Below, in pieces: positions 768 through 23,760 of a stretch of DNA of 64,000 nt. The notes under the pieces are model-generated. The model was given only the letters and a program-made list of their open reading frames with translations, was not told the origin of the DNA and made no database searches. Each line of letters opens with the position of its first letter. The first letter of the stretch is position 1. This DNA is from an uncultured Chromatiales bacterium (GTDB lineage Bacteria; Bacteroidota; Ignavibacteria; SZUA-365), in assembly GCA_964635845.1 (NCBI GenBank), contig CAZWNO010000009.1:1622-65621 (forward strand), given 5' to 3'. A program made the translations under genes and the position numbers.

Positions 768-2183
768 TCAGCGGGTGATGTAGGAAATCTGCTTTTCAAG
801 TTGATCTACCCGGTTGCGAAGGGTGTCGTCATCGGCCATATCGCGTTCGATCGTCTTGCAGGCGTGAATGATGGTGCTGTGATCCCTGCCGCCGAAGTGC
901 AATCCGATCGTTTTGAGAGAGGCCCGGGTCAGGTTCTTTGCCAGGTACATGGCGACCTGGCGCGGCAGGACAATCTCCTGCTTGCGTGTTTTTGCCCGCA
1001 GTGAAGTTTCGGACACCTTAAAGTGATCGGCGACGATTTTTTGAATCTGCTCGACCGTCAGATCCTTCTTGTCCGATGAAATGACGTGCTTGAGTACCCG
1101 TTCGGCGAGCACAACATCGAGAGGTCGCTGTTCAAGCGTATGTCTGGCTATGAGACCGATGTAGCACCCCTCAAGTTCGCGAATGTTGGACTTAACGTTC
1201 GACGCGATGAATTCAATCACGTCCTGTGGAAGATCGATATGATCGCCTTCTGCTTTTTTGCGAAGAATGGCGATGCGGGTTTCCAGGTCCGGCGGTTGCA
1301 CGTCCACTGTCAACCCGCATTGAAATCGTGAAATAAGGCGTTCATCGAGCCCGACGAGGTCCTTCGGCGGCCGGTCTGAAGAGAGAATGATCTGCTTTTT
1401 CAGCTGATGGAGCGTGTTGAAGGTGTGGAAGAACGTATCCTGCGTTCTCTCCTTTCCAGAGAAGAACTGGATGTCGTCGACGATCAGCACGTCCATGTTC
1501 CTGTAGAAATTCGAGAACTCGATGGTGTTGTTGCGCTCGATGGAGTCAACGAAGTCAATCGTGAACTTCTCGCTGCTCACGTAATAGACGCGCTTCTCCG
1601 GATTTACCTGTGAGACATGATTGCCGATCGCCTGAATCAGATGCGTCTTGCCCAGCCCGACTCCTCCATAGAGGACCAGCGGATTGAATGCAGTCTCGCC
1701 CGCGTTGTTGGCGACGTTGAGAGCTGCTGCGCGTGCAAACTGATTTCCATCTCCGCGTATGAAGCTCTCGAAGGTAAATTTCGGATTGAGATTGGTTACG
1801 AACGGTTCTCGTACATAAATCCCCTCGTGCGTCCTCCTTTTTTCCGCTGCCGCGGAAAGGGCGGGCTGACCTGCCGGATAGGGATTTCGTTCCAGGTCCA
1901 GGGCGAACTGATCCTGCTTCGGTACCTTCACCGCATACTGCAGCGAGGCGTTGTCTCCCAGCACTTCACGCAGTGAGCACTGGATGAGTTCGAAGTGGTG
2001 TTCCTCGAGCCATTCATAGAAGTACGTACTCGGTACCTCCACGGTCAGCAGACCGTTTTCGAGGCCGGAGGGTACTATGGGTTCAAACCATGTACTGAAG
2101 GTCAGCGGTTTGACCTGTGGTCGTATCCGCTCGAGGCATTCGCGCCAGACAACGGCAGCAGGCCTGCTGATTTCAACATCCAT
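768..2183 (-). CDS. dnaA: Chromosomal replication initiator protein DnaA
   Basis: 471 aa. AAA+ Walker A GGVGLGKTHL, Walker B LIVDDIQF, sensor/box VII, and a C-terminal DnaA-box-binding HTH (VAMYLAKNLTRASLKTIGLHFGGRDHSTIIHACK). Full-length architecture. Confidence 0.95.
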   Translation of the reverse strand: MDVEISRPAAVVWRECLERIRPQVKPLTFSTWFEPIVPSGLENGLLTVEVPSTYFYEWLEEHHFELIQCSLREVLGDNASLQYAVKVPKQDQFALDLERNPYPAGQPALSAAAEKRRTHEGIYVREPFVTNLNPKFTFESFIRGDGNQFARAAALNVANNAGETAFNPLVLYGGVGLGKTHLIQAIGNHVSQVNPEKRVYYVSSEKFTIDFVDSIERNNTIEFSNFYRNMDVLIVDDIQFFSGKERTQDTFFHTFNTLHQLKKQIILSSDRPPKDLVGLDERLISRFQCGLTVDVQPPDLETRIAILRKKAEGDHIDLPQDVIEFIASNVKSNIRELEGCYIGLIARHTLEQRPLDVVLAERVLKHVISSDKKDLTVEQIQKIVADHFKVSETSLRAKTRKQEIVLPRQVAMYLAKNLTRASLKTIGLHFGGRDHSTIIHACKTIERDMADDDTLRNRVDQLEKQISYITR

Positions 2184-4191: not shown

Positions 4192-5823
4192 ATGAAGGAT
4201 TATCTGAGAGCACAGCTTGCGCTTGCGCTGTCCACTCTGGGACTGGAAGCGCCGGCCGACGATATTCAGTTTGAAAAACCCAAGATTGCCGGCCACGGCG
4301 ACCTTTCGACGAATGTCGCGATGATCCTGGCACGCGCGGCGCGGAAAAATCCTCGTCAGGTCGCGCAGGATATCGTGGACATCCTGCGACTTGATGCACG
4401 GAAAATATCCTCAGTGGATATCGCAGGTCCGGGTTTCATCAACTTCCGGTTTGCCGGCACACACCTTTCCGAAGGACTCAGGGATATCCTCGAGCGAGGC
4501 GACCGATACGGTGCGAGCGACGAGCATGCCGGGAAATCCGTAAACGTCGAATGGGTAAGTGCAAATCCTACCGGTCCGCTGCACGCGGGGCACGGCCGCC
4601 AGGTCTGCATCGGTGCCACGATCTGCTCCCTGCTGGAATGGACCGGATGGAGCGTGACCCGCGAATACTATTTCAACAATGCCGGCAGCCAGATGAACAA
4701 TCTGGCAATAAGCATCCGCGAGCGATATCGCGGCTTGCTTGGTGAGCAGGTGTCGGATGAAAACATCCATTATGCCGGCGACTATATCAGCACGATTGCC
4801 CGGAAAATCCTGGATGAAGAAGGCGATGCGAAGAAGGATGCGCCGCTGGAGTATTTCCGAAAACAAGGCGAAACGCAGTGTTTCGCCATGATACGGCACA
4901 CACTCGATACGCTCAGAGTGCATCACGACATCTTCTATAACGAGGACAGTCTTTATAACGAAGGGAAGATCGAAGCCGTCCTCGCGGCACTGCGCGAAAC
5001 GGACCTGGTCTATGACAAGGATGACGCCATCTGGCTCCGGACCACGGCCTTCGGAGCGGACAAGGATCGCGTTATCGTCAAGAGCAGCGGCGAGCCGACA
5101 TACAGACTGCCTGATATCGCCTACCATCGGGAGAAAGTTCTCCGCAAATACGATCGCATCATCGATATCTTCGGGGCGGATCACATCGCCACGATACCCG
5201 ATGTGCTGGCCGCACTTCGCGCGATTGGTCTTGCGACGGATCATATCGACGTGATCATCCATCAGATGGTGAGCTTCGTGCATGAAGGCGAAGCCGTGAA
5301 GATGAGCAAGCGTTCAGGCAACGTCTACTATCTCGATGATCTTATCGCGGATGTCGGAGCTGATGCCGTACGATATTTTTTCATCATGCGGGGTGCCGCG
5401 TCGCATCTTGAATTCGACATCAAGCTGGCGCAGGAACAGAGCGAGAACAATCCCGTGTACTACCTGCAATACGCCCATGCACGCATCGCGAGTATCTTGC
5501 GCTTCGCTGAAACCGAGGCCGTCGGCGAAGAGAACGTCGCCGACCTCTCCCTGCTGAATCATGAATCGGAAGTGACCTTGATCAAGGAACTCCTGCGTTT
5601 TCCGGAGTGGGTGGTCGTATCCGCGCGTACGTATGAGACGCAGCATCTGTGCACATACTTGAACAACTGCGCGACGGCGTTCCACAAGTTCTACCACGAC
5701 TGTCGCGTCGTGACAGATGACCGGGCGCTGAGCGGAGCGCGGCTCGCCCTGTGCCGTGCGACGAAGCAGGTGCTGCGTAACGGCTTCGCCATCATCGGCA
5801 TAGACGCGCCGGACAAAATGTAA
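4192..5823 (+). CDS. argS: Arginine--tRNA ligase
   Basis: 543 aa. Class I HIGH motif region SANPTGPLHAGHGR and a KMSKS-like MSKRSGN. C-terminal DALR anticodon-binding region. Ends in terminal Met as is typical. Confidence 0.95.
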   Translation: MKDYLRAQLALALSTLGLEAPADDIQFEKPKIAGHGDLSTNVAMILARAARKNPRQVAQDIVDILRLDARKISSVDIAGPGFINFRFAGTHLSEGLRDILERGDRYGASDEHAGKSVNVEWVSANPTGPLHAGHGRQVCIGATICSLLEWTGWSVTREYYFNNAGSQMNNLAISIRERYRGLLGEQVSDENIHYAGDYISTIARKILDEEGDAKKDAPLEYFRKQGETQCFAMIRHTLDTLRVHHDIFYNEDSLYNEGKIEAVLAALRETDLVYDKDDAIWLRTTAFGADKDRVIVKSSGEPTYRLPDIAYHREKVLRKYDRIIDIFGADHIATIPDVLAALRAIGLATDHIDVIIHQMVSFVHEGEAVKMSKRSGNVYYLDDLIADVGADAVRYFFIMRGAASHLEFDIKLAQEQSENNPVYYLQYAHARIASILRFAETEAVGEENVADLSLLNHESEVTLIKELLRFPEWVVVSARTYETQHLCTYLNNCATAFHKFYHDCRVVTDDRALSGARLALCRATKQVLRNGFAIIGIDAPDKM

Positions 5824-5825
5824 CC

Positions 5826-6533
5826 TCAGAAGTAGTACGCCAATCCCGCGCAGTACGCGTTGCCGTTGAGATTGATGTTGGAACGGAAAACGTCGGTCTG
5901 AAGTGGATGGGTCACGCCGGCGGCAGTGACAGATGGCTGGAGGAAACGGTTTTCGACGCTGACCTGCGGATCGCGGAAGAGCAGGTTGAACCGCAAGCCA
6001 ACGTGTTCCAGAACGAGATATTCGGCCCCTATCAGTACGTGAATGCCGATCGCCGGTGTCGCGGAGATGTGTTCCGCTTCGATACCCGCAATCGCATGGA
6101 TCCTCCTGCCGCTGTACACGCCGAGACCACCGCCGACGTACATGTCGAAGCGATCCCCGGAGAACGGCAAGGAGAACAGTGCGCTGCCCTCGAACAGCAT
6201 CATCGTGAAGCCATGCGAAACAGACGAACCGCCGTATTCCTGCTCGACTTCGCGTGTGATGAATTCTCCGCGGAATTCCACCGCGATCGTGGGAAACACC
6301 CTGTAGCGCCAGGATGCCGCCGCGCCGAACGATCCTCCCAATCCCTGGGTCTGCTGCCGCAGTGTCGGATCGGGTGACTGCGGGAACAGGAAAATACGCG
6401 CGTCGTCATTGAAGCTTCCGTACACGGCAACGCTATGATCCGTGCGCTGCCCCATCGCGGCAGCGGACAGCAGCACAAAAAGACACCCCCGAATGAGCGT
6501 TGAGACCAACAGCTGCCTTCGGGGGTGTTTCAT
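5826..6533 (-). CDS. Outer-membrane beta-barrel protein (OmpA-like/porin-type small barrel)
   Basis: Signal peptide (LLVSTLIRGCLFVLLSAAAMGQ), alternating hydrophobic beta-strand pattern, C-terminal aromatic ...AGLAYYF. Confidence 0.55.
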   Translation of the reverse strand: MKHPRRQLLVSTLIRGCLFVLLSAAAMGQRTDHSVAVYGSFNDDARIFLFPQSPDPTLRQQTQGLGGSFGAAASWRYRVFPTIAVEFRGEFITREVEQEYGGSSVSHGFTMMLFEGSALFSLPFSGDRFDMYVGGGLGVYSGRRIHAIAGIEAEHISATPAIGIHVLIGAEYLVLEHVGLRFNLLFRDPQVSVENRFLQPSVTAAGVTHPLQTDVFRSNINLNGNAYCAGLAYYF

Positions 6534-6609: not shown

Positions 6610-8712
6610 TCAACGGAAGAACTTATCCCGGTTGTCGACGATGTCGATCTCGTTGCGCCGCTGTTCGATCCACGACTGAATGAATTCGTTCTGAGTCGAA
6701 GACAACAACTGCTGGCGGATTTCGTCCTTTTTCACCTTGTATGCAGTGTCATCGAAGGCGGATTTGCTGTCGAGACGCGCGACATAGACACCGCGCTGAC
6801 CGCGGAATGGCGCGGTGATGCCACCGGGCTTCAATCCGAGCATGCGGCCGATGAATGCCTGGTCGGCACCGACATTAGGTACGCCTGCCTGAATTTTGTA
6901 GGGCGGGGTTGTCGCAACCACGAGTCCCGACCGGGATGCGGCGATCTGCTCGAGGGACTTGCCCTTCGTCGCGATCGACTGTGCTTTCTTGAGGGTGTTC
7001 GCCACCTGGCGATCGTACACGACCTGCGGTTTGATCTGCTCGCGCACTTCGTCAAGGGCGCGGTATCCTGCCGGACGCTCTTCGGCTACCATCGCAACGG
7101 TATATCCAGCGCTCGACTGATGCACTTCGCTGATCTCTCCGACGCCATTCTCAAACGCGAATTTCACAAGAGCGGGATTCGTGCCGAGATTCGGAATGTA
7201 TGAACCGGTCTGCTTCGCAAATTCGGGTGTCTCCATCACTTGAAGCTTCTGTGCGGCGGCTTCGGCTTCGAATCCGTTTTCCGTCGCGAAGTACGCGAAA
7301 TCACGCGCACGCTCAAAAATGGCGTCACGAGTGCCGCTGCCCGAGCGGATATCCATGCGGAGTTCCGCCATCTGGAGTTCGCGGGAGGAACGATCGTGCA
7401 CCTTGATGACATGGTAGCCGAACTGCGTTTTAACGACACCCTTGATATCGCCCGGGCGCGCACCAAAGACGGCGTCTTCGAATTCCTTGACCATGCGATC
7501 CTTTCCAAACCAGGAGAGATCGCCGCCGCGCTCGGCAGCACCCGGCTCTTCGGAATACTGCGCTGCGAGTGCTGCGAAGTCCGCGCCGGACTTGGCCTTT
7601 GCGAGGACCTGTTCCGCTTTCGCCTTCTGTGCAGCATCATCCTGTCCGCCGTCGGTACGGAGGAGGATATGCGAGGCATGATACATGACGTTTTCAGAAG
7701 TACGTTCCCCGAGGATCTTGTAGATGGACAGCCCTGTTTCGTTGGGCACAGGACCCACGATTGAACCGACAGACTGGGAGAAGACCTGTTTTGCGACCTC
7801 GGCACCGACCTGATCGCGCGTAAACCAGCGCGTCGAATCGTAAGGCTGCACGGAGTTGTTGGCGACGAGTTCGAGGAAGTCTTCGCCGCCGACAGCAAGC
7901 TCCTTCAGCGTATTGAGTTCGTTTACGACAGCGCTGGTATCGCCTTTCGAGGGAACATCCGGGAAAACGACATACTTGAGCTTGCGCATGTCCTCTGTCT
8001 TGAAACGCTCCTTGTTCTTCTCGTAGAAGCGCTCGTACTCGGCCTGCGATGGTGCGGCGGTATCGGCACCGGCGAACACGCGCGGATCGAAGAAGACATA
8101 GCTGCTGACGAAATCGATGTTCTGTTCGACGAATTTCGAACGGATGGTTCCTTCGGAAACAAGGACGGACGAAGTGAGGATGTTCGTCAGCTTGGAACGA
8201 AGCAGCTCGGAGCGCAGCTGGGATTCGATCGCCACGAGAGCCTGCTGATTTTCAGGACCGGGATTGCGAAGGAACTGCTGATAGGCATCCCTGTTGAAAC
8301 GACCCGTGGAGTCCGTGAAGTACTGAGCGAGCTGCTGCGGCGGTTCATCGCTGAACACCCAGTCGGTGATCTCCTCATCGGAAACGGTGATTCCGAATTC
8401 CTCGATGGCCTGCTCGACGATCGTCTGCGTCACGAAATCATTCCAGACCTGTTCACGGATCTGCATGTAATCGTTTTCCGTGAGATCACGGCCGTTGTTT
8501 TGTTCCTTGCGCTGTTCGGCGGCACGCTCGACGACGTCCTGGAACTCCTGGTAGGAGATGGCTTTCCCACCAATGCTTCCGATTTCGTTCATCGAGCCCT
8601 GCATGATCGAACCGAGGTCAAGGTCGCTGAAGACCCAGAACGCAACGAAGACGACCGCGAAAGCCATGATGAAGACGTGCGCATTGTCGCGCATTTTGGT
8701 CATCATACCCAT
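6610..8712 (-). CDS. ppiD: Periplasmic chaperone / peptidyl-prolyl cis-trans isomerase, PpiD/SurA-like
   Basis: 700 aa. N-terminal membrane anchor, SurA_N-like region, PpiC-type rotamase domain (ASHILLRTDGG...GDLSWFGKDRMVKEFEDAVFGARPGDIKGVVKTQFGYHVIKV). Confidence 0.75.
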   Translation of the reverse strand: MGMMTKMRDNAHVFIMAFAVVFVAFWVFSDLDLGSIMQGSMNEIGSIGGKAISYQEFQDVVERAAEQRKEQNNGRDLTENDYMQIREQVWNDFVTQTIVEQAIEEFGITVSDEEITDWVFSDEPPQQLAQYFTDSTGRFNRDAYQQFLRNPGPENQQALVAIESQLRSELLRSKLTNILTSSVLVSEGTIRSKFVEQNIDFVSSYVFFDPRVFAGADTAAPSQAEYERFYEKNKERFKTEDMRKLKYVVFPDVPSKGDTSAVVNELNTLKELAVGGEDFLELVANNSVQPYDSTRWFTRDQVGAEVAKQVFSQSVGSIVGPVPNETGLSIYKILGERTSENVMYHASHILLRTDGGQDDAAQKAKAEQVLAKAKSGADFAALAAQYSEEPGAAERGGDLSWFGKDRMVKEFEDAVFGARPGDIKGVVKTQFGYHVIKVHDRSSRELQMAELRMDIRSGSGTRDAIFERARDFAYFATENGFEAEAAAQKLQVMETPEFAKQTGSYIPNLGTNPALVKFAFENGVGEISEVHQSSAGYTVAMVAEERPAGYRALDEVREQIKPQVVYDRQVANTLKKAQSIATKGKSLEQIAASRSGLVVATTPPYKIQAGVPNVGADQAFIGRMLGLKPGGITAPFRGQRGVYVARLDSKSAFDDTAYKVKKDEIRQQLLSSTQNEFIQSWIEQRRNEIDIVDNRDKFFR

Positions 8713-8881: not shown

Positions 8882-10366
8882 TCAGAAACGGTACACGAGC
8901 CCGAACATAAGGCGCGAGACATCGATTTCCTGGTCAGCGCGGAAGGCCTCGTCGGGTACGTCGATATCCGGATCGGTGTAGTTGTATGAGAAAGTGGTGT
9001 AATTGGACATCGTGTATGCCGCATGAATGGCAAAATTATTCTCGAATTCGTATCCGAGTCCAGCGGAGATGGTTTTGATGTCGTAATCCGCTTTTTCCTC
9101 GTCCGCTTCCCAGGGCGAATACCGGTAGCCGAAGCCACCGCGAAGGACCAGACCGGTTTTGGGGATCGAGAATTCGGCGCCGATGCGGAAATTATTGGTC
9201 GCACGGAAGAGCTTGCGGATGTCGTGGTTGAGCGGACTCGATTCAAAATTGTTGGTATCACCGAATTCCAGATCCGAATAGTCCACGATCTCGAAATCGC
9301 CGCTGACGGTCGCGTACTCGACCGGCGACCAGGAGGCGCCGACGCTGTAGACCGGCGACGTCGTGATATCGTAGTTGTTGTTGTCGATGTTCAGCTCGTA
9401 GCTCAGATTTGCGTCCGCGAATCTGGCGGATCCCGATTTGGTGTAATCTTCGCTGATCGTGATCATATTCGCCGTCTGTACTGCCACGCCGAATCGCGCC
9501 ACATCGTTGAGGTTGTAGAGAAAGCCGAAGCGCATATTCCAACCCGAGATGTCCTGCTCCCAATCTTCATCGAGTTCCAGTCGCTGGAAGTCTGTGCGCG
9601 TGACGTTGTCGATGCCCACAATCGCATCCTGCCAGACGTTATTGACGTCCTCCTCGATGAAAGAGCGTTCATAGCGATAGGACCCGGAGAGGATATTGAG
9701 AGACAAACCTATCATCGCATTGGGAGCGACTTCGAGGCTGCCGCCGAAGCTCCACTGGTTCAGTCCGCCGTCTTCTAACTGCTCGATCGTCTGCTGGACA
9801 CGGTTGGCGACAGGTATGGCAAACCAGCCTGGCTTTCCCTCGTCGATATAGCTCAGCACAAGCGTGTCTTCGAGCCCGAGGTTCCATGCAAAATCCAGTT
9901 CCTCGTCGTCGGCGTTGTAAAGTGAAGACTGGATCGAACTCTGGGGATTGTACACGTCCATCTGCATGGTGCCGGTATAATCGAGGAGTCGATTATAGCC
10001 CGCCGCGACCACAAAGCTGCCACGGGCCACGGGGAAGGGGATCGCCAGGTTCAGGTTGTTGAAGACCGTCCCGTTTTCGCTGCCATTTGCCTGCACACCG
10101 AACATGCTCGCATCGTTGTTCATGCCGATATTCGAGAGTCCGAAGGAAAACTCGCGCATGCGCAGCTGGCCGAGACCAGCCGGATTCCAGTACAGGGCCG
10201 AGGCATCGTTTGCGAGTCCCACGAACGCGTTGCCCATTCCGGCACTGCGGGCACTGACCAGGTCTCCGGTGTGCGAGAGCCGCAGGGCGTCCTCAACGGT
10301 CTGGGCGCGGGCATTGGCTGCAAGGATCATCATCATGAATAGGGAAAGAAATATCGCGCGTTTCAT
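8882..10366 (-). CDS. FadL/PorV/PorQ-like 14-strand outer-membrane beta-barrel protein
   Basis: ORF runs to 10435. Likely start is MKRAIFLSLFMMMILAANARAQ (signal peptide). N-terminal SAGMGNAFVGLANDASALYWNPAGL motif is characteristic of FadL-family/PorV-like barrels. Ends ...GLVYRF. Confidence 0.6.
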   Translation of the reverse strand: MKRAIFLSLFMMMILAANARAQTVEDALRLSHTGDLVSARSAGMGNAFVGLANDASALYWNPAGLGQLRMREFSFGLSNIGMNNDASMFGVQANGSENGTVFNNLNLAIPFPVARGSFVVAAGYNRLLDYTGTMQMDVYNPQSSIQSSLYNADDEELDFAWNLGLEDTLVLSYIDEGKPGWFAIPVANRVQQTIEQLEDGGLNQWSFGGSLEVAPNAMIGLSLNILSGSYRYERSFIEEDVNNVWQDAIVGIDNVTRTDFQRLELDEDWEQDISGWNMRFGFLYNLNDVARFGVAVQTANMITISEDYTKSGSARFADANLSYELNIDNNNYDITTSPVYSVGASWSPVEYATVSGDFEIVDYSDLEFGDTNNFESSPLNHDIRKLFRATNNFRIGAEFSIPKTGLVLRGGFGYRYSPWEADEEKADYDIKTISAGLGYEFENNFAIHAAYTMSNYTTFSYNYTDPDIDVPDEAFRADQEIDVSRLMFGLVYRF

Positions 10367-10480
10367 TATAACCTCCAGATGAACCAGGCCGGCAGGGTGT
10401 GTCGATATTCCACCGGCCTGGGACAGGGTGCTCATGGTGTGTGTATCTGATGGACTCGGTACGGAAATTCTGTGTCGATG

Positions 10481-11461
10481 TTACCGTGACCGGCTGCGGC
10501 TCCCGGAACCCGACGAGCTGGAGGAACCGGAACTTCTGCTCGAGCCGCCGCTGCTCCCTGAACTGCTGCGCGAACCGGAGCTGCCGCTGCTGCTGCGCGA
10601 CGGCGGCGAGTAGCTCGGACTCGAGGACCCGGAGCTGCTGCGGTTGCGTGAAGGCGGCGAATAGCTGCGCTCCGAAGATCCGGATCCGCTGCGTGAACGT
10701 GTGCTCTCTATTGATCTGCTGCTGCCGGAGCTGGAAGAACGCGGCGTGCTGCTTTCGATGCTTCGGGAACGTGTCGATGCATTCTCGTAGGACCGCGAGC
10801 GGCTGTTGTATGATTCGCGAGTCCTCGTGTTCAGACGATCGTATGAGGTTCCGGTCGAGGTCCGCGAACGCGTCGACGACGAGCGGATGGCACCGCCATC
10901 GTTCGTCGATCGGCTGACGCCGCTGCTGCGTGTCACCGAGCGTGTGGCGCCTGACGTGCGGGTCCTTGTATCTAACGTGCGCGTGTTGCCTCCGGTGCGT
11001 ATGCGGGTACCGTCGCTGCGGACGGTGTAGCGGGAGCCTCCGTAGTAATACGGACTGTCCCAGTATCCCGAGTGGCCGTAATGATGGTTGTAATACGAAC
11101 CGCCCCAGTACCAGGAAGGACCGTACCAGAAAGGATTCCAGTAGTGGTTATAGTAACCCCAGTACGGGGGTGCGTAATAGTCGTAATACCATGGATCGTA
11201 ATAGGCGGACCAGACCGAACCGAAGCGCACGGGGTAATAGAAATCGAAATAGGTTCCGGGACGGCCGTAGCCGTCGTAGTAGTAATTGTTGGTGATGTTA
11301 TTGCCGCTGCTGTCCACGTACGACTCGGAATAATCGGCGTAATCGTAGTCCTCGTAACGGGGATAGTCATCGCGCACGGTGAGCTGAGTGTAACAGCCCG
11401 AAGAACCGAGCAGGACGACCGCCGACACCAGGGCAAGCAGAATGATGGAATTTCGTTTCAT
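10481..11461 (-). CDS. Low-complexity lipoprotein: Tyr/Trp-rich block plus Ser/Arg/Thr-rich tail
   Basis: ORF runs to 11500. Probable start MKRNSIILLALVSAVVLLGSSGC (signal peptide plus a Cys consistent with a lipobox). It is followed by ~150 aa extremely Y/W/P/G/D-rich, then ~180 aa of S/R/T low complexity with repeated SYSPPSR-like units. The antisense Cys-rich ORF 10399..10917 is an artefact of the same repeats. Confidence 0.55.
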   Translation of the reverse strand: MKRNSIILLALVSAVVLLGSSGCYTQLTVRDDYPRYEDYDYADYSESYVDSSGNNITNNYYYDGYGRPGTYFDFYYPVRFGSVWSAYYDPWYYDYYAPPYWGYYNHYWNPFWYGPSWYWGGSYYNHHYGHSGYWDSPYYYGGSRYTVRSDGTRIRTGGNTRTLDTRTRTSGATRSVTRSSGVSRSTNDGGAIRSSSTRSRTSTGTSYDRLNTRTRESYNSRSRSYENASTRSRSIESSTPRSSSSGSSRSIESTRSRSGSGSSERSYSPPSRNRSSSGSSSPSYSPPSRSSSGSSGSRSSSGSSGGSSRSSGSSSSSGSGSRSRSR

Positions 11462-11701
11462 GACACACCTCATCGGGTTCTCGTTGTAGCCATATATCAT
11501 ACAACAATTTTCATGCCGTAAAAGAGCCTTTCCACGAGCGCTTCAATTACGAATGTTTCGAGGAATTTCAATTTATGTGCTGCATCTTCCAGAAGAAAGT
11601 CTGCTTCCGGTGACCTCATTTGTGGACACCCTGTGATTAAAAAATCAGACTCCCGGGTTGGGGATCACAGGTCTTTCGAATTGCACTGGAAGACGGGGAC
11701 A

Positions 11702-12478
11702 TCACAGGTATCGCACGTACTGAATCCGAACAGCGCGGATAACCTTATCGTAGGCGAAATCCGAAGCGATGAGATTTTTAAAAAGAATGTCCGCGTTGAA
11801 GCCGATGTTGGTCGATACACGGAAACCGGTGCCCAGCGAACCGTTCCAGAAACCCTTGTTGTCACGATCGTTGTCGAAGGCGAAATTGTATTCGACCAGC
11901 CAGGAAACGATGGGACCGATGGATTTTTCCGCGCCGAGGTAAATGTTCGGATCGAAATCGTCGTCGTTGCGCTCAAGCGTGTAATTCGCGCTTCCGTGGA
12001 AACTGATTGTACCGTGGAAATCGTAATTCTTGCTCGCTGCGATGAAAAATCCGGGACTTTTCATGACATACTGCCGAAGAAACGGAATCCAGCCATCGTG
12101 TCCCTGCGAATCGAAGCCCACGATGATGGCGGGACTGTGCACGTTTTCTTCAAGCACGCGGTAACGCACGGCAATGCCCGGCAGGTTGTTCCAGGTGATT
12201 CCTCCGCTGCCGATCAAGCGGGTGCCACCGAAGGAAACTCCGACATTCAGGTTGGTCATCAGTCCGTACGTCACACCGGCAAGCACGCCGCCATCCGGAT
12301 ACAGGTAGGTCTCGATCGCGCCGGCGGTCGCGGGAATGATACCCGCGACAGGCATGTCGACGAGAAATTGCGGATCGATATTCGCCTTGTCGCCCGCCGA
12401 TCGCTGGCCATGGGCGTGGACGGCGAGCAGGAGCAGCAATGCTGTCAGTATTGTGCGCGCGTGAGAAAAAAGGTTCAT
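11702..12478 (-). CDS. Hypothetical outer-membrane beta-barrel protein
   Basis: Signal peptide MNLFSHARTILTALLLLLAVHAHGQ. Amphipathic beta-strand pattern. 258 aa. Confidence 0.5.
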   Translation of the reverse strand: MNLFSHARTILTALLLLLAVHAHGQRSAGDKANIDPQFLVDMPVAGIIPATAGAIETYLYPDGGVLAGVTYGLMTNLNVGVSFGGTRLIGSGGITWNNLPGIAVRYRVLEENVHSPAIIVGFDSQGHDGWIPFLRQYVMKSPGFFIAASKNYDFHGTISFHGSANYTLERNDDDFDPNIYLGAEKSIGPIVSWLVEYNFAFDNDRDNKGFWNGSLGTGFRVSTNIGFNADILFKNLIASDFAYDKVIRAVRIQYVRYL

Positions 12479-12487
12479 GAGATCTGT

Positions 12488-13519
12488 TTACCGTGTTCCG
12501 GCGATGAACGCCTCAGCCTCGAGCACGTCTTCCTTGCTGCCGAGGATCACCGGGACGCGCTGATGAATGTCATGAGGCTCGATGTCGAGCAGGCGCCGCT
12601 TGCCGTCGCTCGCGCGCCCCCCCGCCTGCTCGATGATGTACGCCATTGGATTGGCTTCGTACATCAGACGCAGTTTGCCGTTGGGATTTTCCCTGTCGGC
12701 CGGATAGGCGAAAATGCCGCCATACAGCAGCGTGCGGTGAACGTCCGCGATCATCGAGCCGACATACCTGGATTTGTACGGACGCCCGCTTTCCTTGTCC
12801 TGCGTCTGCAGGTACTCGATATACCGGCGGAAACCGTCATCCCAGAGCATGCGATTTCCTTCGTTTGTGCTGTAATAGCGGCCGCGCTTTGGTATCGTCA
12901 TGTCCGGGTGCGAAAGCAGGAAGGATCCGATAGTGGGATCGAGCGTGAAGCCCTGCACGCCCTCGCCGGTGGTGAACACCATGATCGTGCTTGATCCGTA
13001 CATGATGTAGCCCGCGGCAATCTGCTTGCGCCCCGTCTGCACGATGTCGGCTTCCGTGCCGGGGCCGCTCTCGGAGACACGGTGAAAAATGGAAAAGATC
13101 GTACCGATGGTGACGTTCACGTCGATATTCGACGAGCCATCGAGGGGATCGAAGAGCATGGCGTAATGGCCGCAGGGAAACTCGTCGGGAATCGGTATGA
13201 TGGACTCGTTTTCTTCCGATGCCATCACACAGAGCTGTCCGCCGCTCTCCATGGAATTGATGATCATCTGGTTCGCGAAGAGGTCCAGTTTTTTGACATC
13301 CTCTCCATGAACGTTTGTCAGCGCGGCGCGTCCGAGAATATTTACCAATCCCGCGCGGCGCACTTCGCGTGACACGATCTTCGCTGCGAGTGCAAGGTTG
13401 CGCAGAAGAGTGGAAAACTCTCCCGTGGCGTCGGGATGGATGCGCTCCATCTGCGCGATGTAGCGCTGTATGGTCATGATCCTGGTTTCATCGCCAGGGA
13501 CGTACGGACGGTCGGGCAT
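12488..13519 (-). CDS. fbp: Fructose-1,6-bisphosphatase class 1
   Basis: 343 aa. Whole-length similarity pattern of FBPase I (…DPLDGSSNIDVNVTIGTIFSI…, …GKLRLMYEANPMAYIIEQAGG…). Confidence 0.9.
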   Translation of the reverse strand: MPDRPYVPGDETRIMTIQRYIAQMERIHPDATGEFSTLLRNLALAAKIVSREVRRAGLVNILGRAALTNVHGEDVKKLDLFANQMIINSMESGGQLCVMASEENESIIPIPDEFPCGHYAMLFDPLDGSSNIDVNVTIGTIFSIFHRVSESGPGTEADIVQTGRKQIAAGYIMYGSSTIMVFTTGEGVQGFTLDPTIGSFLLSHPDMTIPKRGRYYSTNEGNRMLWDDGFRRYIEYLQTQDKESGRPYKSRYVGSMIADVHRTLLYGGIFAYPADRENPNGKLRLMYEANPMAYIIEQAGGRASDGKRRLLDIEPHDIHQRVPVILGSKEDVLEAEAFIAGTR

Positions 13520-20118: not shown

Positions 20119-21954
20119 CTATCTCGAGAGCGTCATCGAAACCGTCCGGGAATGGCTGATGCCACTCGTAAGTCCGGTCATGACCGATGTCGCCATATAG
20201 GTGCCGCTGGCGAGACCGTTCGCCTGGAAGGCAACGATATGACTTCCAGCCTCCATCTCACCGTTGATCAGCTCGGATACCACGCGTCCAAGCATGTCGC
20301 GGACCACGAGTCGCACCGCCGCGCGTTCCGGAATGTCGATACGCAGTGTTGTCGAAGGATTGAAGGGATTGGGGTAGTTCTGCTGCATCGCGAAGGCCAG
20401 CGGCGGTGCGGCAGGTCCGTTCTTCGGATTCACCGCGCCGGTGCTCCTCATCCAGTTGACTTTGATGGCGACGTAATCGAAGTTGTTGACCACCGCATTG
20501 CCGTCGGCGTCCATGTGACAGCCTTCGGGCGTCAGCCACGGCGCGGCGGCCTGTCCGGTCCATTCGAATTCCGCGAGGGGATCCGGGTAGAGCGGAGCCA
20601 GGCGACCGGGACCGTTGAGCCAGTCATAACGGAGATTTGCCTCGTAAATGTACTGATTGAGCGAGGCGCGATCCGCGTAGTTGACAACTCCATCCTCGTT
20701 CACGTCCCCGGGCCAGACAGTGCAGGGAGTCTGTCCCGGCCGCATGACGAGCACGTTGTTGATTTCTTCGATCTTTTTTATGCCGCATGCCCATGGATCG
20801 TCGACGATCACTTCGACACGGTAAAAGCCTGCCGGGAAATTCACAGGCACATCGATCAGCGCGGTGCCATTCGTCTGTGTTGCCGGGACGGAAGTAAGGA
20901 TGCTCGTAAACAACGCTGTCGAGGGATGCGGACCATAGACATTTATCGTGCAGTTCGAGGTCGTGGGTGGCGCCGTACTGGTGTAGTCGACCGCGACGGT
21001 CAGGTTATCGCCGATATAGAATGCCTTGGAGCTGAACTGCGGATTGTCCTGGACGCTGATGCCGTTGACGTCGAAGACATCAGGCGGTGCAATCACGAGG
21101 GAAGGCAGCAGGTCCGACATCTCCGAGGGAGTCGGGCCGTTGAAGTACGCCGATGAGTTAATCGTCGGCCACTGTGCCTGGATCTGCACCGCGCCGTTGC
21201 CAGGCGGATCATAATATCCCGCGTACCATTGAATCCGCATATTCACCGGAACGCCGCCTGTCAGTTTGAGCGGGCTGTTGATGTAGTTGATCGAAGCTTC
21301 GAGATGCATCTCGGAGCTGCTGAACGCCGTGCGACGGACGGTAATCTGGTCCGTCGGGACGACAACTCCCTGTGTCTGCCAGGGCCGGTGATAGCGAAGG
21401 CGCCCGGTCGGAGTCGTTGTCCATCCGGCGAGATTCGCATACGAAAAAGCGGCGACATCAGGCGGATACTGGTACCCGGGGGCCGGGAGTGCGAGGTTGC
21501 CGTCCAGATTCCCAGTGATATCCCACTGACCGTCTCGATCGAGATCGAACCAGATATTCAGCATCGTCGAATTCCTGCTCGCAAATCCCGATGGAGTTTT
21601 CAGGATGGCCGCGATGGAGAGCTGACATGCGTCGATTTTGAACCATACCTTGTTGCCCGCCGTGGTCACCGCCCAGGGATTGATCTCGACAGCATCACTC
21701 CATTCGCCGGGTGACAGTGTGCCGTCGATCACCGGTGATGTAATGCCTTCAGGAATCGTGATCGGGGCCGTCGCCTTCTGCATGCTCTCGGACGATGGTA
21801 TGATCTTCACACCACGATCCCGATCGGGTATGTGGGTACCCGGAGGAACATACCCGGGTGAATACTCTATGGTAGAGACATTCTGCGCGGTCAAGAGCGC
21901 GGATGTCATGATCATCAGCACTGAAACAGTGCAAATGCGGGAGAGAAATTTCAT
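20119..21954 (-). CDS. Secreted protein with dockerin-like repeats and T9SS type-A C-terminal sorting domain
   Basis: ORF runs to 22053. Likely start MKFLSRICTVSVLMIMTSALLTAQ. Dockerin/EF-hand-like repeats GDVNEDGVVNYADRASL and DADGNAVVNNFDYVAI. C-terminal QNYPNPFNPST...TVSMTLSR is the Por_Secre_tail signature. Confidence 0.65.
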   Translation of the reverse strand: MKFLSRICTVSVLMIMTSALLTAQNVSTIEYSPGYVPPGTHIPDRDRGVKIIPSSESMQKATAPITIPEGITSPVIDGTLSPGEWSDAVEINPWAVTTAGNKVWFKIDACQLSIAAILKTPSGFASRNSTMLNIWFDLDRDGQWDITGNLDGNLALPAPGYQYPPDVAAFSYANLAGWTTTPTGRLRYHRPWQTQGVVVPTDQITVRRTAFSSSEMHLEASINYINSPLKLTGGVPVNMRIQWYAGYYDPPGNGAVQIQAQWPTINSSAYFNGPTPSEMSDLLPSLVIAPPDVFDVNGISVQDNPQFSSKAFYIGDNLTVAVDYTSTAPPTTSNCTINVYGPHPSTALFTSILTSVPATQTNGTALIDVPVNFPAGFYRVEVIVDDPWACGIKKIEEINNVLVMRPGQTPCTVWPGDVNEDGVVNYADRASLNQYIYEANLRYDWLNGPGRLAPLYPDPLAEFEWTGQAAAPWLTPEGCHMDADGNAVVNNFDYVAIKVNWMRSTGAVNPKNGPAAPPLAFAMQQNYPNPFNPSTTLRIDIPERAAVRLVVRDMLGRVVSELINGEMEAGSHIVAFQANGLASGTYMATSVMTGLTSGISHSRTVSMTLSR

Positions 21955-22383
21955 CAAGACCTCCGAAAAAAATGTTGAGGAAAATTGCTTCCACGGAACA
22001 TCCCGTCGACAAGCAGGGCTTGCGACCGGGACAATCAGGATATAACGGATCAACTATGTGTTGTACTGCTGTGAAAATATCACTGTCAATAGCAAAACGC
22101 AATAGATACGTGAATATTTTTCACGCTGAAAAATAGATTGAAAAAGGCTACTTCCTGGATAAAAGGTGAAGAAACCTGGATAGCGTCAGTGAATGCGGCG
22201 GTGCATTTTATTCACTGTATGCAGTGTTCACTATTCGCGCACGCTATCAAGTATGTTCCGGTACGTGGCAGGAGAAGGGAGAGCAGTGTCTTGCGAAAGA
22301 TCGGTTTCGTGCGAAATTGAATCTCCACTCCGGGCGCTGTTCATTCGAAATCACCCGGTGCTGGAAGGAGAAAGGCAGGCAGG

Positions 22384-23760
22384 TCAATCAATCGATGGAG
22401 TGGATTCCCATGTCCAGGGACGCTGGAACATCATCCGGAAAGCGAAAGGAATCATGGGACCGAAGGAAATCGGATGCCGCCAGTGAAAAGCACGGATCCG
22501 CTGTTCGATCCATTTCAGCGGCGTCTCCGGAGAAATATAAAAGGTCGCGTTCCACAGGTCGTCGTCGGCTGAGACCGCGCCTTCGGCGATCGCCCTCTCA
22601 TGCAGCTGTGTCCCCGGCTGCAGGCGCCACCCGATGCCGAAATCCACGAAAAGCGCCTTGAGCGAGGGTGCGCGATGCAGCGTCTCTTCCACTGTCGCGC
22701 GCGTTTCCCCGGGACCCCCGAAAGTGGGCATGAACATGAATCCCAGCCCCTCCTCGCGCATGGTCCGCGCGTCGCGAAAGATTTCCGCGGTTCCGAAGGA
22801 CTTGCCCAGTGCTTCCAGGACAGGATCGGAGAGGCTCTCCGCGAACATGGTGAATCCAACGCCTCCTGCGCGGCGGTACAGGCGGAAAAATTCCCGATCC
22901 GCCTGTCCGGGATCGAAGACCGCGTACAGCCGCAGCTGGGCGCCGCGGCGGATGATCTCGCGCAGTGTCTCCTTGGCGTGATCCAGCGGCCGATTGAAGC
23001 CGGAGTCGACGAGCCATACGGAATGCGCGCCGTGTTTCCGCTTGAGCAGCAGCAGCTCGTCCGCGATGTCCGCCGGATCGCGGAGTGTGAACTCGCGTCC
23101 GAAGCTGCGGTAGGTGTCGCAGTAGGTGCATTTCTCCGGACAGCCCGAACGCGTGATCACCGCGGCCTCCCAGTAGCAGCGGCGGTACCGTTTTCTCTCG
23201 ATGAGATCGTGATAGTCAAAGCGGACGCGTGGATATCCCGTGATCGTGAAAGGACGCTCGATGATTTCGCCACTCTCGCCCCGGAATACGAGGCCGGGCG
23301 TGTCGAGATCGGGCCGCGGCGCGGAGTCACCCTTGCCGTTGATTTCGAGCGAGCGCACGAAATGCGAGATCGCATCGAGCGAATCGCCGGCGATGCCGTA
23401 GTCCGCCTGCATGTAATCCAGCATGCGGCTTGGAAAGGTCGTGAACGCGGTTCCCCCGAGCAGCAGCGGCGCCCGTGTCGCGGCACGCACCGCGGCGAGC
23501 AGCTCGCGGATTCCCGGCAGCGGATCGTCGTATTTCCGCATCCACTGGTTATCGCGGTTGCGGATCGATGCGCAGACGAGGTCCGGCTGCAGGTCGCGCA
23601 GCTCGCGCAGCGCGGCGGCGACGGGATCCCGCTCTCCCATGAGGTCCACGAAGCGGAGATCATGCCCGTCGTGCTGAAGCTGCCGCGCGACCATCGCGGG
23701 ACCGATGGGCAGCGGCACGAGGTAGCGGTTCATGTTGGTCTGGAGAAAAAGGATCTTCAT
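22384..23760 (-). CDS. B12-binding domain radical SAM protein
   Basis: 458 aa. N-terminal cobalamin-binding Rossmann-like domain (MKILFLQTNMNRYLVPLPIGPAMVA...). rSAM cluster motif CPEKCTYC. Confidence 0.8.
   Translation of the reverse strand: MKILFLQTNMNRYLVPLPIGPAMVARQLQHDGHDLRFVDLMGERDPVAAALRELRDLQPDLVCASIRNRDNQWMRKYDDPLPGIRELLAAVRAATRAPLLLGGTAFTTFPSRMLDYMQADYGIAGDSLDAISHFVRSLEINGKGDSAPRPDLDTPGLVFRGESGEIIERPFTITGYPRVRFDYHDLIERKRYRRCYWEAAVITRSGCPEKCTYCDTYRSFGREFTLRDPADIADELLLLKRKHGAHSVWLVDSGFNRPLDHAKETLREIIRRGAQLRLYAVFDPGQADREFFRLYRRAGGVGFTMFAESLSDPVLEALGKSFGTAEIFRDARTMREEGLGFMFMPTFGGPGETRATVEETLHRAPSLKALFVDFGIGWRLQPGTQLHERAIAEGAVSADDDLWNATFYISPETPLKWIEQRIRAFHWRHPISFGPMIPFAFRMMFQRPWTWESTPSID

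Follow-up and report, generated by a model that had tools for sequence, protein, structure and literature searches.

The window analysed here is a 64,000-nucleotide (nt) stretch of DNA from an uncultured Chromatiales bacterium, assigned by its GTDB lineage to the Ignavibacteria of the Bacteroidota (GenBank assembly GCA_964635845.1, contig CAZWNO010000009.1, positions 1,622 to 65,621 of the forward strand). On its minus strand, the open reading frame (ORF) at 10481..11461 is a genuine gene of a conserved family. Its product is, by its sequence, a predicted lipoprotein precursor of 326 amino acids (aa) in which an acidic, aromatic block is followed by a basic Ser/Arg tail, and gene order in related genomes places it in what appears to be a conserved three- or four-gene outer-membrane module with two beta-barrels. 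This conserved two-barrel operon is the most informative feature of the locus and had been missed in the initial annotation of the DNA. It is tentatively proposed, with a probability of about 40%, that the product is a lipid-anchored, unfolded envelope protein that is docked and/or exported by the partner barrels and that forms a cationic, aromatic and cohesive layer. The parts of the gene and its product are the following, all on the minus strand:

10481..11461, minus strand: coding sequence of the 326-aa lipoprotein precursor, predicted to be disordered (ORF list and translation; stop codon at 10481..10483)
11468..11471, minus strand: Shine-Dalgarno-like GAGG, 6 nt 5' of the ATG at 11461 (read from the sequence)
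11393..11461, minus strand: predicted signal peptide and lipobox, residues 1-23, ending LLGSSG-C23 (AlphaFold2 (AF2) helix; invariant G22, C23, Y24 and T25)
11276..11392, minus strand: strand-like YTQLTVRD after the Cys and acidic Tyr-rich segment ending NNYYY, residues 24-62 (composition and conserved motifs)
11012..11275, minus strand: aromatic block, residues 63-150 (41% Y+W+F; invariant residues in the alignment)
10484..11011, minus strand: Ser/Arg/Thr/Gly tail, residues 151-326 (composition; predicted local distance difference test (pLDDT) score <50)

The signal peptide (MKRNSIILLALVSAVVLLG...) is modelled by AF2 as a helix over residues 2-24 with a pLDDT >90. It leads into a lipobox that reads S-S-G-C in the window and L/F-S-G-C in the family consensus (pattern tested: [LVI][ASTVI][GAS]-C). 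The residues G22, C23, Y24 and T25 are invariant in 19/19 aligned homologues, and C-[YFW]-T is present in 149 of 151 full-length family members, most commonly in the context L-S-G-C-Y-T-Q. The lipoprotein signal claimed in the initial annotation is thereby borne out, and the product is predicted to be a substrate of signal peptidase II.

The segment directly after the Cys (residues 24-62) consists of 25% Tyr, has a net charge of -6 and contains the conserved motifs Y[PA][DE]Y[ST]E[TSA]Y.D and NNYY. The aromatic block starts with a conserved core, R..YF.FYYP.R.G..WS.YYDPWY, which is followed by a variable low-complexity stretch of Y, W, G, P and H; its overall composition is Y 27%, W 9%, F 5%, G 14% and P 9%. 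Together, residues 24-150 are acidic and contain 36% Y/W/F. The tail of 176 aa is composed of S (40%), R (18%), G (11%) and T (11%), carries a net charge of +23 without a single Lys and ends in SRSRSR. The entire mature chain (10484-11392, minus strand) contains 39 Tyr, 8 Trp, 37 Arg and 0 Lys. When nine ordinary genes of the window are taken as background (mean 9.9% Y+W+F and 12.9% S+R), the bias of the aromatic block has a binomial tail probability of 3e-15, and that of the tail one of 5e-44. The initial annotation had described a lipoprotein with a Tyr/Trp-rich block followed by a Ser/Arg-rich tail at this position; translation and composition confirm this design, which is conserved throughout the family. 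All six Ser codons are used in the tail (AGC 27, TCG 18, TCC 12, TCA 8, AGT 3, TCT 2), so the low complexity is kept at the protein level and does not reflect DNA slippage. The general O-glycosylation sequon of Bacteroidota is D-(S/T)-(A/I/L/V/M/T). The window protein has no such sequon, and general O-glycosylation was rejected on this ground as the cause of its Ser/Thr richness.

The start at the ATG at 11461 (MKRNS) is supported by the homologues, which all begin MKR, and by the GAGG 6 nt upstream; an alternative ATG in the same frame, at 11500, would lengthen the protein by 13 residues. The search for homologues that the initial annotation had suggested was productive. A word-indexed search with the lipoprotein returned 32 homologues of 290-375 aa at E<=1e-3, which are unnamed or labelled "hypothetical" and derive from metagenome-assembled genomes of Bacteroidota, Ignavibacteria and Melioribacteraceae. 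When a profile of the N-terminal 165 residues served as query, an exhaustive search returned 607 representatives of 50%-identity clusters at E<=1e-3, of which 224 score E<=1e-10; nearly all of the 607 have a length of 290-370 aa and an alignment that begins at residue 1. In addition, a scan of one genome per species, using a query built on six close sequences, yielded 17 loci in the genomes of other species. The lipoprotein ORF is intact (310-351 aa) at each related locus that is complete across the gene. Between the window and eight relatives, changes at the third codon position predominate in both gene halves; the differences from locus L006 at the first, second and third positions number 16/14/69 in the N block and 38/20/88 in the tail. 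This concentration at third positions indicates that the frame is under purifying selection.

These observations also bear on the possibility that the ORF is spurious and arose in GC-rich repetitive DNA. Such an origin would fit the 59% GC content of the window, the long overlapping ORFs on both strands and the degenerate repeats of the region, and the initial annotation had named an absent or frameshifted ORF in close relatives as its expected sign. Instead, the architecture is kept as an intact ORF in relatives, including the 17 loci from other species, and the 607 family representatives, the dominance of third-position substitutions in both halves under purifying selection, the invariant lipobox and the Shine-Dalgarno-like GAGG all speak against it, and this explanation is refuted. 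A non-genic repetitive region was rejected on the basis of the intact homologous ORFs, the 607 representatives and the codon-position bias. The overlapping ORFs lie on the opposite strand or in other frames (11633-12994 (+), 10399-10917 (+) and 10972-11436 (-)), and one of them, of 453 aa, spans the barrel gene and the gene for fructose-bisphosphatase (FBPase). They are regarded as by-products of the 59% GC content and not as genes.

A few family members in the databases appear to be frameshifted in the tail, and in one long-read contig the gene is split. On a 3.35-Mb contig of the European Nucleotide Archive (L022:5970-6981 and L022:7493-8927), the lipoprotein gene and the FadL-like gene are each in two pieces, owing either to indels in the assembly or to decay of the module into pseudogenes in that genome. 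Since frameshifted or split copies are rare and neighbouring genes are affected too, sequencing error is the likelier cause.

Across the family, a set of motifs recurs in the N-terminal half: the invariant G-C-Y-T, Q26, a segment of alternating hydrophobic and polar residues, Y[PA][DE]Y[ST]E.Y.D, NNYY and R..YF.FYYP.R.G..WS.YYDPWY.D. Further recurring motifs are TR.RT.G.TR, YDR(I/L)(S/N)TR, SYSPP and a terminal SSGSS...G-R-x-R. Among 149 full-length members, the N block has a median length of 134 aa with 30% aromatic residues and a net charge of -7, while the tail has a median of 162 aa with 66% S/R/T/G/N/K and a net charge of +18; the C-terminal residue is Arg in 110 of the 149. The lipoprotein shares 60-75% identity with its closest relatives (loci L004-L008), compared to 70-85% for the products of the two barrel genes. 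Composition and charge pattern are conserved while the sequence of the lipoprotein drifts.

Searches of Pfam, NCBIfam and PDB with the lipoprotein sequence gave no match, cluster look-ups of the family gave no functional names, and literature searches for an earlier description of a design combining a Tyr/Trp block with a Ser/Arg block gave nothing specific. The AF2 model, based on an alignment of 31 sequences, has a mean pLDDT of 46.8; the signal helix alone is confident and no beta structure is predicted. On the strength of this model the tail is read as intrinsically disordered, and the aromatic N block has no autonomous predicted fold, but may fold upon binding of a partner.

The two partners of the lipoprotein gene in the window are the following:

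11702..12478, minus strand: upstream operon partner, a predicted 258-aa outer-membrane beta-barrel (AF2 barrel, PF06082 matches in the family, synteny)
8882..10366, minus strand: downstream operon partner, a predicted FadL-family outer-membrane barrel of the 14-strand type with a PorV/PorQ/BamG-like N-terminus (PF03349, profile matches, synteny)

In tblastn searches with the window proteins, the gene order 258-aa barrel, lipoprotein, FadL-like barrel was found at every locus with enough flanking sequence. The same three-gene order occurs at distant loci with differing outer flanks (CysS/RsgA, ExbBD, DegP), which were reached by starting either with a remote homologue of the lipoprotein or with remote homologues of the 258-aa protein. 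Furthermore, 4-bp gene overlaps, as expected of an operon, are present in L021 and L023. In five distant lineages of Ignavibacteria- and Kryptonia-type loci, a second, shorter and paralogous lipoprotein gene lies between the long lipoprotein gene and the FadL-like gene:

L021:6805-7356: short paralogous lipoprotein
L022:6986-7492: short paralogous lipoprotein
L023:7045-7542: short paralogous lipoprotein
L024:7116-7469: short paralogous lipoprotein
L026:6230-6799: short paralogous lipoprotein

This short paralogue (117-189 aa) has a GC[YF]T lipobox, PWW and PPPPTR motifs and a basic tail ending in G.RR. No second GCYT lipoprotein gene was found within the window, and the short paralogue is also absent from L001 and L025.

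The strict conservation of the operon would also be expected if the lipoprotein were an accessory or gating subunit. Its disordered chain would then line or plug the FadL-like channel, the FapF-like channel or both, or would build a selective aromatic meshwork at the channel mouth, and the real cargo would be something else, for example a hydrophobic substrate or a polysaccharide. LptE-LptD and RcsF with its outer-membrane proteins are lipoprotein-barrel pairs with threaded or plugging segments. The presence of two lipoproteins and two barrels in many lineages, with gene counts that tend to pair, is consistent with such a subunit, and a further precedent is the loop of BamP inside BamA (PMC12611786). 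However, some 300 low-complexity residues far exceed what a plug needs. Because tail length and repeat number vary freely, a function in bulk properties fits better than a fitted plug, and a gating role is considered unlikely.

The 258-aa upstream partner belongs to a family with 248 homologues at E<=1e-5. Among 40 aligned relatives, 22 match PF06082 (YjbH) at E<=0.01, over profile positions 10-127 of 658, which is the N-terminal end of the profile. In a rescan of six proteins, five (P0097, P0100, P0101, P0102 and P0105) score 25.8-30.4 bits against a cut-off of 24 bits. AF2 models the window protein as a confident beta-barrel (pLDDT 84.5) in which the signal peptide is the sole helix; 14 strand elements are listed by DSSP, the first of them preceded by about 25 residues. 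In a Foldseek comparison with the PDB, the top 14 matches are all FapF (E 6e-6), with the barrels of OmpG, Omp33, KdgM and intimin close behind. The N-terminal barrel of YjbH/GfcD has independently been placed in the FapF family by two studies (PMC8346858; PMC9603273). Taken together, profile matches and model suggest that the 258-aa protein is a stand-alone relative of this N-terminal FapF-like barrel. FapF itself is a Pseudomonas channel that secretes unfolded amyloid polypeptides and that has an N-terminal coiled coil and a helical plug (PMC5557850). In the gfc operon, the product of the first gene, GfcA, is natively unstructured, rich in Ser/Thr and possibly exported via GfcD (PMC8592465; PMC8346858).

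The likeness to FapF raises the question of whether the lipoprotein is a functional-amyloid fibre subunit. In that case, the aromatic block (YYDPWYYDYY...) would form cross-beta fibrils after export through the FapF-like barrel, giving a matrix like those of Fap or curli but in another phylum, and the lipid anchor and basic tail would tie the fibres to the cell. Pro, Gly and Asp disfavour cross-beta structure, and the aromatic block is rich in all three. In favour of fibrils are the very high aromatic content of the block, the fact that among known structures FapF matches the partner barrel best, and a proposal that the FapF-like N-barrels of GfcD/YjbH export amyloidogenic polypeptides (PMC9603273). 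Nevertheless, the chain contains no imperfect repeats like those of FapC or CsgA and matches no amyloid family in Pfam, AF2 shows no beta structure in it, and the cluster of three or four genes includes no FapD-like protease or nucleator. A fibre subunit is therefore improbable, more so than a gating subunit.

The downstream partner is, by its profile matches, a member of the FadL/Toluene_X family. The gene encodes 494-517 aa, since its ORF reaches 10435 and the signal peptide begins at 10366, and the protein matches PF03349 with 59.2 bits (cut-off 29.7; E=3.2e-16). A family profile built from an alignment of the translated loci matches TbuX (1.9e-7), FadL (2e-3), PorV (6e-3) and also TodX in the PDB. 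The similarity to TbuX and FadL extends over the C-terminal half, whereas that to PorV is confined to the N-terminal ~67 residues. PorV and PorQ anchor PorU and PorZ, surface proteins of the type IX secretion system (T9SS). BamG, a FadL-family barrel of the Fibrobacterota-Chlorobiota-Bacteroidota (FCB) group, binds the lipidated N-tail of BamH (PMC12611786).

In the proposed mechanism, the lipoprotein would be exported by the Sec pathway and then lipidated at Cys23. The invariant C-Y-T-Q strand and the conserved aromatic core would dock on the FadL/PorV/BamG-like barrel, in the way that BamG holds the lipidated N-tail of BamH. The unfolded chain, probably its basic tail with the conserved G-R-x-R end, would be passed through or held by the YjbH-N/FapF-like barrel, as FapC is by FapF. 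Once exposed, the chains could form a cohesive, cationic and aromatic coat that binds anionic glycans and envelope polymers, such as lipopolysaccharide (LPS), exopolysaccharide and extracellular DNA (eDNA), with chain-chain contacts provided by Tyr/Trp-Arg pairs and by acidic and basic blocks. Outer-membrane sorting, interaction with the barrels, export, surface exposure and a matrix or adhesive function of the lipoprotein are all inferred from architecture and gene context.

Several points weigh against this proposal. The sole tie among the lipoprotein and the two barrels is synteny, and the Y-T-Q after the Cys is unlike the acidic lipoprotein export signal of Bacteroidota. The AF2 alignment of the lipoprotein is shallow (31 sequences) and the core motif is well conserved, so the aromatic core could still fold, alone or on binding. 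The FadL-like protein scores far below the NCBIfam cut-offs, with 56.1 vs 250 bits for BamG and 47 vs 90 bits for PorV_fam. The window's own 258-aa protein has no PF06082 match at E<=0.1 and no Pfam hit, and a PDB search with its family profile brings up no FapF sequence, the best match being OmpA (E=0.007). The template modelling (TM) scores with FapF are just 0.41-0.53, and barrels of similar size match generically. In addition, the coiled coil and plug helix of FapF are absent from the AF2 model of the 258-aa barrel, whose lumen, in a crude and uninformative estimate of strand phase, is lined with Gly, Ser and Asn and carries a net charge of about -1, which is not strongly acidic.

The most serious competitor is a periplasmic tether or spacer, in which the lipoprotein is not exported, but stays in the periplasm, held by its lipid anchor in either the inner membrane or the inner leaflet of the outer membrane. 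The tail and aromatic block would then bind peptidoglycan or the periplasmic faces of the barrels non-covalently and set the spacing or stiffness of the envelope, in a function comparable to that of Lpp, OmpA, Pal or TonB-like spanning linkers. A lipid anchor followed by ~300 disordered residues could span the periplasm, a polycationic tail could bind the anionic peptidoglycan, and the residues after Cys+1 do not resemble the acidic export signal. Furthermore, in the clade of the window, the module adjoins a gene for a periplasmic chaperone and other envelope genes:

6610..8712, minus strand: PpiD/SurA-like periplasmic chaperone, 700 aa (Pfam SurA_N and Rotamase domains)

This chaperone gene follows the module in L003-L020, but is absent in L001 and L021-L026, and hence is context of the window's clade and not part of the module core; as support for a tether it does not carry beyond that one clade. 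A covalent link of the Lpp type is excluded for the window protein, which ends in Arg and is devoid of Lys throughout its mature chain. The Lpp-type tether was rejected for these reasons (end ...SRSRSR, 0 Lys in the mature chain) and since no helix that could form a coiled coil is predicted. A tether would also leave the invariable co-encoding of a FapF/YjbH-N-type and a PorV/BamG-type barrel unexplained. It is rather unlikely, and the exported, barrel-docked coat remains the preferred reading.

A more specific version of a surface layer is suggested by the composition of the chain. A grammar of Tyr-Arg stickers was reportedly described by Wang and co-workers in Cell in 2018. By analogy, the Tyr/Arg composition of the lipoprotein fits such a sticky or phase-separation grammar, and like the FUS family the window protein keeps its 39 Tyr and 37 Arg in separate low-complexity blocks. 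It could thus be imagined as a lipid-anchored, FUS-like block copolymer of Tyr and Arg. The acidic-aromatic and polycationic blocks of adjacent chains would coacervate into a two-dimensional protein gel on the outer membrane, a condensate serving as an envelope layer, with the YjbH-N/FapF-like barrel as conduit. This gel is an unlikely outcome. If true, it would reveal the long-unknown role of the FapF-like barrel of GfcD/YjbH as the export of natively unstructured proteins, and condensation or gelling of the chain on the membrane would mean that a phase-separation grammar is employed in the bacterial envelope. An extracellular case is galectin-3, where an aromatic, Pro/Gly-rich and disordered N-terminal domain drives phase separation (PMC7060198). 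The window protein contains no RGG (Arg-Gly-Gly) motif and no RNA-binding or lectin domain, and it is extracytoplasmic with a predicted lipid anchor.

In comparison with described systems, the module shares with the Fap system of Pseudomonas a small outer-membrane barrel gene next to that of a secreted protein, and the Fap substrates FapB, FapC and FapE are likewise unfolded in the periplasm (PMC5557850). The resemblance extends to the barrel itself, since the AF2 model of the 258-aa protein matches FapF best in the PDB. However, the Fap client is an amyloid with Q/N/G/A repeats, whereas the client proposed for the window module is a lipoprotein that combines a Tyr/Trp block with a Ser/Arg tail. 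Equivalents of FapA, FapD and FapE are lacking from the module, and a FadL-like barrel is added. The gfcABCD/yjbEFGH operons of E. coli are similar in that a YjbH-type barrel related to FapF is co-encoded with a hydroxyl-rich, natively unstructured and exported protein (PMC8346858; PMC8592465), while for the window module export would have to be assumed. Here the differences lie in the barrel, which is single and has 258 aa in the window compared to a 12-12 double barrel with a middle domain in GfcD/YjbH; in the gene content, as the cluster has no homologues of GfcB/YjbF or GfcC/YjbG and no outer-membrane polysaccharide export (OPX)/Wza genes; and in the unstructured protein, which is 3-4x longer than GfcA/YjbE, predicted to be lipidated, aromatic and polycationic.

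With BamG-BamH and PorV/PorQ, the module would share a FadL-family barrel of the FCB group as a docking platform, as proposed here, although the similarity is weak. BamH is a folded two-domain protein, unlike the lipoprotein, and the cluster has no link to BamA or T9SS genes. By analogy, the module would work most like Fap and Gfc/Yjb combined with BamG-BamH, but it does not qualify as a member of any of these. RcsF is also a lipoprotein with a disordered, positively charged linker and is associated with, or threaded through, the barrels OmpA, OmpC and OmpF. It differs by its folded signalling domain, its short linker, the absence of a dedicated co-encoded barrel and the absence of an aromatic block. 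The neisserial heparin-binding antigen NHBA, a lipoprotein of the cell surface, likewise has a long disordered region and binds polyanions through an Arg-rich stretch (PMC6104945). It differs in having a folded C-terminal beta-barrel domain and only a short Arg-rich region, and it shows no sequence relation to the window protein.

End-to-end disorder is rare among the extracytoplasmic proteins of bacteria, and the present family comprises hundreds of members in a strictly conserved operon of Ignavibacteria-, Kryptonia- and related Bacteroidota-type genomes. Export of an unfolded protein by a FapF-like barrel is an idea raised earlier for GfcA/GfcD of the group 4 capsule. As a minimal, single-barrel relative of YjbH/GfcD-N with an unstructured client, the module offers a simple test system for FapF-like export outside Pseudomonas. 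It would also extend the emerging theme of FadL-family barrels of the FCB group as protein anchors.

The initial annotation had further pointed to SYSPPSR units reminiscent of the heptads of the RNA polymerase II (Pol II) C-terminal domain (CTD), and to internally repetitive DNA. Exact SYSPPSR occurs twice, at residues 266-272 (nt 10646..10666) and 283-289 (nt 10595..10615), in a single tandem duplication:

10583..10684, minus strand: 51-nt tandem duplication encoding the two SYSPPSR units (Tandem Repeats Finder and a repeat finder; 75-77% identity)

Apart from this duplication, the DNA contains only short degenerate repeats, and the description as internally repetitive holds only in a weak sense. 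In the family, a SYSPP-like motif is present in 72 of the 149 full-length members, with the last copy 31-44 (about 37) residues from the C-terminus, and relatives have 1-3 copies of SYSPPSR. The number of repeat units in the tail differs among relatives, as the initial annotation had proposed to check. The likeness to the Pol II CTD is superficial: a CTD-like array was rejected, as it would consist of many tandem Y-S-P-T-S-P-S units with a 7-residue periodicity, compared to two copies with a period of 17 residues in the window protein.

Some further observations concern the surroundings of the module. The short paralogues of two Kryptonium-like loci (L021:6805-7356 and L023:7045-7542) contain a conserved C-x-x-C-H (SDCFKCHS / SDCASCHS), which from the motif is a possible haem-c attachment site in a lipoprotein that is of low complexity elsewhere. 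At the locus found from homologue P0007, a 701-aa MtrC-like multihaem cytochrome with a T9SS C-terminal domain (L001:2260-4365) is encoded a few kb upstream of the module on the opposite strand, and is probably a coincidental neighbour. In the window, a small outer-membrane barrel gene (235 aa, weak OMP_b-brl match) lies just downstream of the cluster at 5826-6533 (-), so that, with the PpiD/SurA-like gene, genes for envelope biogenesis are locally concentrated in the window's clade.

No Rfam families or tRNAs were found in the window, and a scan for promoters and terminators gave background levels only. A DnaA gene is located at 768-2183 (-), which suggests that the window is probably near the chromosomal replication origin, and the gene for arginyl-tRNA synthetase (ArgRS) at 4192-5823 (+). 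A 644-aa protein encoded at 20119-22053 (-) has weak dockerin and Por_Secre_tail matches and is likely a cargo of type IX secretion, from which it follows that the organism probably has a T9SS. A gene for a B12-binding radical SAM protein is located at 22384-23760 (-).

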